Virus genome (UHGV): UHGV-0208172
Source of the DNA: a virus
Length of the DNA stretch: 45,009 nucleotides
Reading direction: 5' to 3' (one strand)
The notes under the pieces were generated by a model, which searched no databases, was not told where the DNA came from, and was given only the letters and a program-made list of their open reading frames with translations. Every line of letters begins with the position of its first letter. Position 1 is the first letter of the stretch. Positions 5,698 through 8,815 of the stretch are shown here, in pieces. A program made the position numbers and the translations under genes.

Positions 5698-5879
5698 TTC
5701 TTACCTTCGCTTTTCTTGAAACTGCGCTTTATGTCCGGCAGCGTGTAGCAGCGTGACTTTTCGTATTTACCGTCCGAGCTTACCAAAACAAAGCTGTTGC
5801 CATCTTTTGATATGTACTCGATGGTGAAAGTATTGAATGAATGTACGCTGTATATTTCATCGCCGACATTAAGTTTCAT
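5694..5879 (-). CDS. hypothetical protein (61 aa)
   Basis: ORF translationally coupled to the helicase gene stop. Confidence 0.45.
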   Translation of the reverse strand: MKLNVGDEIYSVHSFNTFTIEYISKDGNSFVLVSSDGKYEKSRCYTLPDIKRSFKKSEGKK

Positions 5880-7300
5880 TTCTTACCTCGTCTCTTCATG
5901 TAATTAAGCAACTCTTCCTGGACCGATTTCTTCTCGTCTGTGCGCGCGGCGACAACCTCGTCCAGCGTGTCTTTAGCAACTATGTGATACAGGAACACCG
6001 GGCGCTCGTGCCCTGCCTGCTTCTGGCGGACAGGGCCTATACGCTCAACGACCTGCAGATAGTGCTCAAGGTTCCAGCCTTGTGAAATAAACGCCAGATG
6101 GTGACCTCCGTCCTGTAAATTCAAACCATGCCCGGCTGACGCGGGATGCACGCATAGGATTTCGATTTCACCGCGGTTCCACGCTTCCATCTGCTTATTC
6201 CCCTTAGCGCCTTTGGTAAATGCCTGTGCTTGCGGGAATCGCTTAAGGATGCGATCCAGTTCGTGCTTGAACTGATAGGCCACCAGTAACGGTGCACCCT
6301 GTAACTCCTCAACGATAGACTCCAGCGCATCCAGTTTCGTGTCGTGCACTTTCTCCCAGTCTTTGGTTGCTTCGCCGTCCGCCCCCGAAACATACACGGC
6401 ACCGGAGGCAATCTGCAGACACTTAGATATCTTCGCCGCCGCGTTAGCCGCTTCGACTTCGCCGCTTTCCAGTTCCGCGAATAACTTCTCCTCCATGTCG
6501 ATATACGTCTGACGCGCCTTCTTCGGCAGGTCAATTTCAACCGGTACGATAATCGGCGCTTCACAACCGAACCACTCGGAGGGGTCGATAGTCAGGCTGA
6601 TGTCTTTCATCTTCTGATGAATCTCATTATCGGCACCCGGTCGTGCGTGATACTCACGTGCCATAGCCGATTTTCCTTTCTGTACTGAGTTAAACCAGCG
6701 GTCAGTGAATGCCGTATACGATGAGCCGAGGCGTTCGCCTCCATCGATAAACCAGTTCTGGCCCCACAAGTCTTTTAGGCCGTTCGGTGACGGTGTTCCT
6801 GTCAGGTTGATGAAACGCTTAACCTTACCGAACGCCACTTTACTGAGCGCCTTTGCACGCTTGCTTCCACCAGAACGGCTGCGGAACGATTTAAGCTTCG
6901 TGCTTTCATCGGCAACGATAACCGTAAAAGGCCAGTCGTCTTTGCCGTAGTAGTCAATCAGCCACTCGATAACTTCGTAGTTCGTACACACCACGTTAGC
7001 GTCCGACTCCAGCGCTGCGATACGGCGCTTCTCTGAACCGGTCGCATCGACGACATGCAGACACGGGAAGTTCCATTTCTCTTGTTCTGCGGGCCATGTA
7101 CCTGACGCAACACGCAGGGGAGCTAGGATTAACACGCGGTCCTCTTCGGTAAGCTGCCCGTTGCGGAACAATCGGTTGAGCACCCACATAGTAGAGGATG
7201 TTTTACCACCTCCCATACCGCACCATATATTACAGCGCGGGTGTTGCAGCATAAACGAAGTCATGAGCTTCTGGTATTCGCGCCTTTGAAACTTAGACAT
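5876..7300 (-). CDS. SNF2/DEAD-like superfamily 2 DNA helicase
   Basis: Walker A GMGGGKT, DExx box VIVADEST, LTGTP motif, C-terminal helicase domain; 474 aa. Confidence 0.85.
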   Translation of the reverse strand: MSKFQRREYQKLMTSFMLQHPRCNIWCGMGGGKTSSTMWVLNRLFRNGQLTEEDRVLILAPLRVASGTWPAEQEKWNFPCLHVVDATGSEKRRIAALESDANVVCTNYEVIEWLIDYYGKDDWPFTVIVADESTKLKSFRSRSGGSKRAKALSKVAFGKVKRFINLTGTPSPNGLKDLWGQNWFIDGGERLGSSYTAFTDRWFNSVQKGKSAMAREYHARPGADNEIHQKMKDISLTIDPSEWFGCEAPIIVPVEIDLPKKARQTYIDMEEKLFAELESGEVEAANAAAKISKCLQIASGAVYVSGADGEATKDWEKVHDTKLDALESIVEELQGAPLLVAYQFKHELDRILKRFPQAQAFTKGAKGNKQMEAWNRGEIEILCVHPASAGHGLNLQDGGHHLAFISQGWNLEHYLQVVERIGPVRQKQAGHERPVFLYHIVAKDTLDEVVAARTDEKKSVQEELLNYMKRRGKK

Positions 7301-7949
7301 GATTGGCCTCGTAAACTGCTTTTGCGAAACCCCGCGGAGTAAGAGACCGAAGTTGCTTAGTTCTCGCCGAAGCTCCGCCCAAGTATTTCCACCCCCAAAA
7401 ACAACCTATATGTGGAACCGGTTTTTTCTCCGGCATCGCAAAACCGTTACCGGCCCATATGCACGTCTTCTTAGTATAGGCGTCGCGTTTCGGCATCTTA
7501 GGGTGAAATACATCTTCACTTCCGTCCATATAGCCGCCGTACTCAAACGGGTTAAAATAATAGTTTGGCTTACGCCACAACGTTGACAGCTTACCTACCG
7601 GGTTTTCTACCATCCACGGTGACCCGTATACTCGGCCTAACCGTTCAGCCACCTTAGCGGTAGCAACGGCGGTATCTATTACGGATTGTTGCCGTTGGTG
7701 TTTCTCCCCACATCCGGCTAAGTCTGTACAACTAGGGAATGCGAAAATAATATCTGGCTCCGGGAAGTCGGAGAAACAGGAGTTAGGCGAGATGAACTTA
7801 TTCACGTATATAATGTTTTCATGCTGCACGCGCATTTCATACGCCCCGTGGTCAGCTCCGTCGTAGTTGAAACAATAGCAAGTATGGCCTGCTTCCGCCC
7901 ACGGCTGGGCCATAAGGCCCGAACCGTCAAACAATGACCAGACAATCAT
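7293..7949 (-). CDS. compact DNA cytosine-C5 methyltransferase-like protein
   Basis: 218 aa; motif I-like LFDGSG, Pro-Cys-like PSC, ENV motif (WMVENPVG), C-terminal LTPRGF resembling motif IX/X; unusually short. Confidence 0.55.
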   Translation of the reverse strand: MIVWSLFDGSGLMAQPWAEAGHTCYCFNYDGADHGAYEMRVQHENIIYVNKFISPNSCFSDFPEPDIIFAFPSCTDLAGCGEKHQRQQSVIDTAVATAKVAERLGRVYGSPWMVENPVGKLSTLWRKPNYYFNPFEYGGYMDGSEDVFHPKMPKRDAYTKKTCIWAGNGFAMPEKKPVPHIGCFWGWKYLGGASARTKQLRSLTPRGFAKAVYEANHV

Positions 7950-8167: not shown

Positions 8168-8452
8168 TTAACTATAATAGTTTGCTATTAGGTCGTCAAC
8201 CTGTTTAAACGACCCGACGACAAAAACATTTGCACCGCGTTTACGCATCCGCTCGTGCTCACGTAACTGGTGCGGGTCTGGCTTCGTGTTTTCGTCTTTC
8301 TTCACCTCGACGAACCAGACGATGCCGCCGGGGAGAATTACCAGCAGGTCAGGTGCGCCGGAACGTCCTTCGTAGGAAAGTTTACGAACGAGACCCCCCA
8401 GGGCCTCGAATCGCTCCTTTGCATATTTCTGTACGCGCCCTTCCGGGGTCAT
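8168..8452 (-). CDS. VRR-NUC domain nuclease
   Basis: 94 aa; PD-(D/E)XK-type signature GAPDLLVILPGGIVWFVEVKK. Confidence 0.75.
   Translation of the reverse strand: MTPEGRVQKYAKERFEALGGLVRKLSYEGRSGAPDLLVILPGGIVWFVEVKKDENTKPDPHQLREHERMRKRGANVFVVGSFKQVDDLIANYYS
8171..8199 (-). promoter_or_regulatory. sigma70-like promoter (class B: TTGACG-N17-TATAGT) embedded in the 3' end of the VRR-NUC gene
   Basis: Read on - strand: TTGACG ACCTAATAGCAAACTAT TATAGT; same architecture as promoters at 11967 and 14705. Confidence 0.5.
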
Positions 8453-8601
8453 GAGTGCAGAATCCAGGTAAGGAAAGCCCCGCCTAGAACGGCAACCCCG
8501 ACAAACTTAAAGAACAGGCCGTAACAGAACATCGCAGCTATTCCGGCGCCAAGTAACAGTGCGAGCATGGTTACTATCGTCCAAAATACAAACATTGTCA
8601 T
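8449..8601 (-). CDS. small hydrophobic membrane protein (50 aa), alternative to the overlapping 8507..8815 ORF
   Basis: ATG with RBS GGGAGGGG; MTMFVFWTIVTMLALLLGAGIAAMFCYGLFF...; stop overlaps VRR-NUC start (ATGA). Confidence 0.35.
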   Translation of the reverse strand: MTMFVFWTIVTMLALLLGAGIAAMFCYGLFFKFVGVAVLGGAFLTWILHS

Positions 8602-8815
8602 AATACGCACCCCTCCCGTTTCGTATGCTCAATCCCGCAGCGCGGACAGATTCGGCAGTCTTCTTCATAGAACCAGTAAATTTTCGTTCCAGCACCCACA
8701 GATAAATTGCGATGAACATACCCAATACGGCGACCATCATGCCGTATTGACCCTCGTGACAGTAGACACCGGCGGCAAATCCCGCCAGTATCGCGATAAT
8801 CAGTTTACTTAGCAT
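8507..8815 (-). CDS. hypothetical protein with hydrophobic N-terminus (frame conflict with 8449..8601)
   Basis: 102-aa ORF; N-terminal half membrane-like, C-terminal half low plausibility. Confidence 0.3.
   Translation of the reverse strand: MLSKLIIAILAGFAAGVYCHEGQYGMMVAVLGMFIAIYLWVLERKFTGSMKKTAESVRAAGLSIRNGRGAYYDNVCILDDSNHARTVTWRRNSCDVLLRPVL

Follow-up and report, generated by a model that had tools for sequence, protein, structure and literature searches.

Bacterial type II cytosine C5 methyltransferases (C5-MTases) such as M.HhaI, M.HaeIII, and Escherichia coli Dcm carry P-C and E-N-V motifs followed by motifs VIII to X, and canonical enzymes devote 80 amino acids (aa) or more to a target-recognition domain (TRD). 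In DNMT3, a catalytic domain of about 280 aa functions as a dimer or tetramer together with DNMT3L. Phages also encode CmoX, a DNA cytosine C5-carboxymethyltransferase (PDB 8yf3) of 333 residues whose choice of donor depends on an Arg in place of the motif X Asn; the CmoX study describes phage CmoA as typically accompanied by CmoX and CmoY homologues. The closest described relatives of the gene reported here are the BASEL "Dcm-like" enzymes of Drexlerviridae and Dhillonvirus phages, together with Dcm of the T1-like phage K42. All isolated K42 mutants that escape retron Ec86 carry lesions in a 711-bp "dcm" gene, and a plasmid expressing K42 Dcm by itself in E. coli was enough to methylate msDNA and trigger the retron (10.1101/2023.08.16.553469). 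In the same study, 5-methylcytosine (5mC) on msDNA was raised, as detected by LC-MS against a standard, and a C82A/E128A/K175A/K176A quadruple mutant was inactive (10.1101/2023.08.16.553469). The CCWGG site ascribed to K42 Dcm was taken over from E. coli Dcm, and the host, MG1655, is itself dcm+ (10.1101/2023.08.16.553469). Later papers repeat the K42 Dcm/retron conclusion. This homologue, roughly 50% identical to the protein described here, is the sole biochemical support for the family. The BASEL study found no simple correlation of Dcm-like genes with restriction resistance, and literature searches turned up neither methylomes nor restriction digests of phages with a compact Dcm-like gene.

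Here we analyze a methyltransferase gene in a 45,009-nucleotide stretch of viral DNA (UHGV virus genome UHGV-0208172; hereafter, the window). Compared with the bacterial type II enzymes, its product is ~100 to 250 aa shorter and lacks a large TRD, with no counterpart of the E. coli Dcm TRD; it has P-x-C and E-N-P where they have P-C and E-N-V, and motifs VIII to X are not recognizable by sequence. Identity to the catalytic domains of DNMT3A and DNMT3B is 12 to 17%. With the Drexlerviridae and Dhillonvirus enzymes and K42 Dcm, the window protein shares PHROG 757, size class, and the invariant Cys, Glu, and Lys residues, and its gene, like the Drexlerviridae and Dhillonvirus genes, is an orphan in the early/replication region. 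It differs from the Drexlerviridae and Dhillonvirus proteins in being 10 to 19 residues shorter, in having FPSC rather than FPPC, and in being a recombinant allele on a Kagunavirus (Guernseyvirinae) backbone. We consider it likely that the gene specifies an active, autonomous orphan AdoMet-dependent DNA C5-MTase belonging to the compact "Dcm-like" phage family, which is produced along with the replication genes of its operon and methylates phage DNA.

Genomic context

The open reading frame (ORF) proposed by the first-pass annotation was recovered at the same coordinates, strand, and length, closely packed between two neighbors:

5876 to 7300, minus strand: SNF2-family DNA helicase, 474 aa, downstream of the methyltransferase (PHROG 62; E value, 1e-167)
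7293 to 7949, minus strand: compact Dcm-like C5-cytosine DNA methyltransferase gene (PHROG 757 family), ATG start, 218 aa
7946 to 8137, minus strand: 63-aa ORF of unknown function (PHROG 4879), upstream of the methyltransferase; its stop overlaps the methyltransferase start as ATGA

Its proposed placement in a replication module also holds: helicase-primase, exonuclease, Gp2.5-like SSB, Pol A, and VRR-NUC genes precede the 63-aa ORF and the methyltransferase, and the SNF2 helicase follows. As read from the sequence, the helicase start codon lies 8 nt inside the methyltransferase ORF. This overlap makes the helicase an operon neighbor, not an established partner; PF00176 was detected on the identical helicase gene in related contigs. 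The gene overlap has a parallel in BFVD entry A0A6J5SE15, a natural fusion of methyltransferase and helicase whose methyltransferase domain has 29% identity to the window protein (Foldseek E value, 9e-11). The flanks of the methyltransferase gene have ~89% DNA identity to E. coli Kagunaviruses (Guernseyvirinae), identifying the window as a K1G/Jersey-like siphovirus genome, and the synteny of the 63-aa ORF and methyltransferase is the same in four metagenomic contigs that carry an identical methyltransferase.

In a 102-aa ORF at 8507 to 8815 (minus strand), the match to PHROG 10404 is confined to the first 43 residues, and related contigs have two ORFs here, the corresponding one of 43 aa and then one of 50 aa; the window ORF appears to have been lengthened through stop loss and overlaps the ORF at 8449 to 8610 in another frame. 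Closely related Kagunavirus-like contigs carry HNH endonuclease genes (contig L129, 8071 to 8562; contig L130, 3934 to 4449 and 7695 to 8027) that follow either the SNF2 helicase or the polymerase, at places where the window has only small ORFs. These insertions in relatives mark the replication module as a hotspot for mobile endonuclease insertion.

Fold and relation to canonical C5-MTases

Pfam and NCBIfam scans of the window methyltransferase gave no match even at an E value of 10, PF00145 included, and PF00145 matches just 9 of 96 family members, all below threshold (best E value, 0.0039). PHROG 757 ("DNA methyltransferase"), by contrast, matches residues 1 to 217 with an E value of 1.2e-78. 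The structure model settles this conflict between sequence libraries in favor of a predicted DNA C5-MTase: the AlphaFold2 model built on the family alignment (pLDDT, 95.2; pTM, 0.91) has a class I SAM-methyltransferase fold, and known C5-MTases are the most similar structures over most of its length. No helix is present between strands 2 and 3 of the model.

For comparison with canonical enzymes, we used a profile of 78 viral C5-MTases plus M.HhaI, with an M.HhaI sequence 100% identical to PDB 10mh over residues 1 to 327. hhalign placed residues 1 to 123 of the window protein against residues 12 to 127 of M.HhaI (E value, 9.9e-5), pairing F7-D-G9-S-G11 with F18-A-G-L-G (F-x-G-x-G), N28 with E40 (motif II), F52 with D60 (motif III), S73-C74-T75 with P80-C81-Q82, and E115-N116-P117 with E119-N120-V121. 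Searches with M.HaeIII and E. coli Dcm were weaker and gave an identical register; among PDB sequences, the family profile found only a marginal M.HaeIII match (E value, 0.25), and it aligned weakly, in the correct register, with the single E. coli Dcm sequence (E value, 0.19). A second-round database search with the family profile revealed no bridge to canonical PF00145 proteins, with PF00145 present on 1 of the 120 matches listed. The profile alignment of motifs I to X suggested by the first-pass annotation thus succeeds for motifs I to VI, which are in register with M.HhaI, and fails for the region of motifs VIII to X: C-terminal segments (residues 120 to 218, 150 to 218, and 190 to 218) gave no significant alignment to the canonical profile. 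The annotation's core reading, a compact C5-cytosine methyltransferase-like protein, is backed by the fold, by this motif I to VI alignment, and by the published activity of the K42 homologue.

Two weak matches were set aside. A phmmer search of PDB sequences returned only PvuII endonuclease (E value, 0.01), which is spurious. An 11-residue resemblance between FAKAVYEANHV and residues 44 to 54 of M.HhaI (YAQEVYEMNFG; the helix after motif II) scored E values of 0.004 to 0.03 and is probably fortuitous; at window positions 7314 to 7340 (residues 208 to 216, FAKAVYEAN), the likeness to the motif II helix may be chance or a hint of topological rearrangement.

Conserved residues and motifs

An alignment of 96 diverse family members, taken from the exhaustive database search described below, contains nine invariant columns (C74, G81, E115, P117, P134, Y158, K160, T162, and W165; 96/96 each), and all nine residues are present in the window methyltransferase. 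Thirteen further columns are at least 90% conserved (L6, G21, F71, P72, T75, N116, F132, P173, R201, S202, P205, G207, and A211), and T204 and F208 each reach 84/96 (88%). The principal elements are as follows:

7917 to 7934, minus strand: motif I, AdoMet-binding loop, residues 6 to 11, LFDGSG (hhalign; hmmsearch to M.HaeIII)
7707 to 7739, minus strand: motif IV catalytic loop, residues 71 to 81, FPSCTDLAGCG (conservation and hhalign)
7599 to 7607, minus strand: motif VI, residues 115 to 117, E-N-P (E115, 96/96; N116, 93/96; P117, 96/96)
7455 to 7478, minus strand: residues 158 to 165, YTKKTCIW, candidate equivalent of motif VIII (invariant Y158, K160, T162, and W165)
7350 to 7454, minus strand: residues 166 to 200, ~35 aa, differing in sequence and carrying indels among family members (conservation table and model secondary structure)
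7314 to 7349, minus strand: residues 201 to 212, RSLTPRGFAKAV, conserved C-terminal motif leading into the last helix, candidate remnant of motif IX/X

The four strings on which the first-pass annotation relied are real, each falling in conserved columns rather than arising by chance: LFDGSG (residues 6 to 11), FPSC (71 to 74), VENP (114 to 117), and LTPRGF (203 to 208). The alignment does not show the catalytic Cys and Glu motifs to be spurious: C74 and E115 are invariant and aligned to C81 and E119 of M.HhaI. The reported ENV motif is correct in its catalytic Glu and Asn, both conserved and aligned, and wrong in its third residue, which is Pro.

Family-wide, the motif I consensus is S-L-[FYC]-D-x-[ST]-G, and the first Gly is not conserved. 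In motif IV, C74 is the predicted nucleophile; the preceding position holds Ser in the window protein and varies among family members (P, S, D, E, or V), with a conserved Pro at position -2 (F-P-x-C-T). E115 is predicted to donate a proton to cytosine N3. In motif II, Asn takes the place of the acidic residue, as in 10 of the 96 family members, and in motif III, Phe takes the place of Asp. Toward the C terminus, the model places a beta-strand at residues 162 to 167, and we regard the 158 to 165 segment as a candidate for the motif VIII role. The claim that the protein leaves little room for a TRD is borne out: residues 166 to 200 are the sole remaining space for a target-recognition element and may act as a mini-TRD. 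The following motif is strongly conserved (R201, 94/96; S202, 88/96; P205, 89/96; G207, 95/96; A211, 92/96) and leads into a terminal helix at residues 206 to 216 of the model. The Y158-x-K160-x-T162-x-x-W165 strand and the R201-S-L-T-P-R-G-F-A-x-A-V helix are candidate functional counterparts of motifs VIII to X.

Size and distribution of the compact family

An exhaustive search of 1.84 billion representatives recovered 991 clusters at an E value of ≤1e-3, almost all 200 to 260 aa long. Median lengths in the family are 221 to 237 aa, versus 288 to 483 aa for the 78 canonical viral C5-MTases. The description "unusually compact" therefore applies relative to canonical enzymes and not within this very large phage family, where ~220 to 240 aa is the norm; short length is thus neither peculiar to this Kagunavirus-like phage nor a sign of truncation. 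Relatives were found by tblastn in ~1,500 of 50,697 phage records (~3%), among them Drexlerviridae, Dhillonvirus, Kagunavirus/Jerseyvirus, Klebsiella phages labeled Jedunavirus, and rV5-like and Phapecoctavirus myoviruses, and many are already annotated as Dcm-like or cytosine methyltransferase. The window methyltransferase is a new allele of this known, widely annotated, and partly characterized family. Among deposited phage proteins, the nearest, from a Klebsiella Jedunavirus, has 77% identity, and metagenomic clusters reach 84 to 85%; the JohannLBurckhardt (Bas11) and KarlBarth proteins are 52% and 56% identical, respectively, over the full length. Direct DNA alignment to Dhillonvirus KarlBarth yielded nothing informative. 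Mapped through the 237-aa Bas11 protein, the mutated K42 residues C82, E128, K175, and K176 correspond to C74, E115, T159, and K160.

A 63%-identical homologue lies in an Enterobacter roggenkampii prophage (contig L132, 8001 to 8663), in a lambdoid nin region between NinE-like and NinF/NinG genes. This copy indicates that the family also occurs as an orphan gene in temperate phages.

Intragenic mosaicism

Outside the methyltransferase, the module closely follows Kagunavirus SZH-1: protein identity is 96.6% for the helicase and 96.8% for the 63-aa ORF, and falls to 60.8% for the methyltransferase. Sliding-window comparison with SZH-1 localizes the difference to one segment:

7340 to 7848, strand not applicable: intragenic replacement segment, ~510 bp, codons ~35 to 203

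Within this segment, most 40-nt windows have 30 to 60% identity, with a few peaks to ~80%; the gene ends and flanks, up to ~7340 and again from ~7848, mostly have ~90% or more. The drop between these two positions means that only ~34 codons at the start of the gene and ~17 at its end are of Kagunavirus origin and that the middle, which contains the catalytic loop and every candidate DNA-contacting segment, was acquired from a different lineage. The recombinant methyltransferase recurs, identical in sequence and with its synteny preserved, on at least four independent metagenomic contigs that are Kagunavirus-like, indicating that this allele is established in the genus. According to annotation rows, some Kagunaviruses appear to lack the gene.

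The replacement of codons ~35 to 203 may represent the exchange of a specificity cassette, in a compact P-x-C family that would not be "Dcm-like" and would read a very short or relaxed motif (compare CpG for DNMT3) or a DNA structure rather than CCWGG. We advance this tentatively, as possible and somewhat improbable. Such exchange would be driven by restriction systems, type IV enzymes, and methylation-sensing retrons.

Autonomy, substrate, and activity

One of the three roles offered by the first-pass annotation was a methyltransferase that needs a partner for specificity, and SNF2-coupled DNMT5 and the pairing of DNMT3A with DNMT3L provide precedents. Here the window protein would be a catalytic core dependent on another protein for DNA delivery or specificity, most plausibly the translationally coupled SNF2 helicase. 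Beyond the overlap of the last 8 nt of its gene with the helicase start and the tiny space for a TRD, this is suggested by methyltransferase/SNF2 helicase pairing in Dhillonvirus KarlBarth and at 11 of 80 viral loci, and by the compact methyltransferase-fold domain within the 1,397-aa "Helicase/UvrB N-terminal" protein of an uncultured Caudovirales phage (A0A6J5SE15). However, a homologous helicase is absent at 48 of the 80 related loci (those with full 3-kb flanks), and 43 of 80 still lack one when two further helicase types are counted; the Klebsiella Jedunavirus and Enterobacter lambdoid prophage copies stand alone, and K42 Dcm methylated msDNA and triggered the retron from a plasmid by itself. 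Nor does a restriction endonuclease lie beside any copy examined. The counts at the 80 viral loci do not support a helicase partner as a family trait, no neighbor is conserved family-wide, and a partner requirement is quite unlikely. The helicase-free loci, the lone copies, and the K42 result together favor an autonomous orphan enzyme.

Substrate and catalytic competence bear on two further readings. C5-MTase chemistry could be directed at another substrate or draw on another donor, with carboxymethyl transfer from Cx-SAM (CmoX-like), m5C formation in tRNA or RNA (DNMT2-like), or modification of single-stranded or hairpin DNA; this is very unlikely, given that the K42 product was identified as 5mC by LC-MS against a standard, that DNMT3B and bacterial DNA methyltransferases outscore DNMT2, and that none of ten scanned replication-module ORFs matched a CmoA or CmoY family in a general family scan. 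CmoX differs from the 218-aa window protein in its length of 333 residues. A pyrimidine-modifying enzyme acting at the nucleotide level, the second of the suggested roles, is unsupported in view of the predicted SAM-dependent DNA C5-MTase fold and the absence of hypermodification genes nearby. Finally, Ser for Pro before the Cys, Asn in motif II, Phe in motif III, the recombinant origin, and the apparent lack of the gene in some Kagunaviruses could point to a dead or weakened allele kept as a DNA-binding or decoy protein, or to a decaying accessory gene. We judge this highly improbable: the ORF is intact, the identical protein recurs on the independent contigs, and the full set of nine invariant residues is retained. 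Among the best 120 clusters, FPSCT occurs in 46 and FPDCT in 62, which indicates that the FPSC variant is under purifying selection, and 8 of 8 aligned enterobacterial-phage proteins have N28 and an aromatic side chain at position 52, including the Drexlerviridae type of the active K42 enzyme.

Proposed function and implications

The best supported of the three suggested roles is the remaining one, a minimal anti-restriction or orphan methylase. For an autonomous orphan DNA C5-MTase, we infer the following activity, target site, and biological role. The enzyme would act on cytosines of phage DNA as it replicates, with incidental methylation of host DNA. If it works as M.HhaI and DNMT3 do, the target cytosine would be flipped into the active-site pocket, where the Cys74 thiolate would attack C6 while Glu115 protonates N3; AdoMet, bound through N28 and the F7-x-G9-x-G11 loop, would give its methyl group to C5, and beta-elimination would free the enzyme. 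In place of a large TRD there would be the strand with invariant Y158, K160, T162, and W165 and the ~35 residues from 166 to 200, which predicts a short or relaxed site; CCWGG is an assumption carried by the family. The window retains 90 CCWGG sites, so this sequence is not avoided.

GATC avoidance is extreme in the window, with 6 sites (6253, 8885, 9507, 15195, 31747, and 38711) against ~156 to 176 expected (observed/expected, 0.04), and no other tested 4- to 6-mer is depleted to this degree. The amino-methyltransferase motif [DNS]PP[YFWH] is absent from every window ORF of ≥100 aa, suggesting that the phage avoids GATC rather than encoding Dam.

The likely benefit of methylation would be protection from 5mC-sensitive restriction enzymes. 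5mC also exposes DNA to type IV restriction, and the likely cost would be exposure to 5mC-dependent type IV enzymes and to sensors such as retron Ec86/Eco1. Pressures in opposite directions would be consistent with the gene's patchy distribution and with the exchange of alleles.

The locus remains of interest for its specificity, its relaxed P-x-C motif, and the cassette swap within the gene. Members of the compact family turn up in ~3% of sequenced phages, escape Pfam, and have about two-thirds the length of M.HhaI; mapping their target site would indicate the minimum protein required for sequence-specific cytosine methylation. For this Kagunavirus-like phage, the gene predicts 5mC in the genome and, with it, altered sensitivity to restriction enzymes, McrBC-type systems, and retron Ec86/Eco1, which would be relevant to host range and to the choice of phages for therapy.
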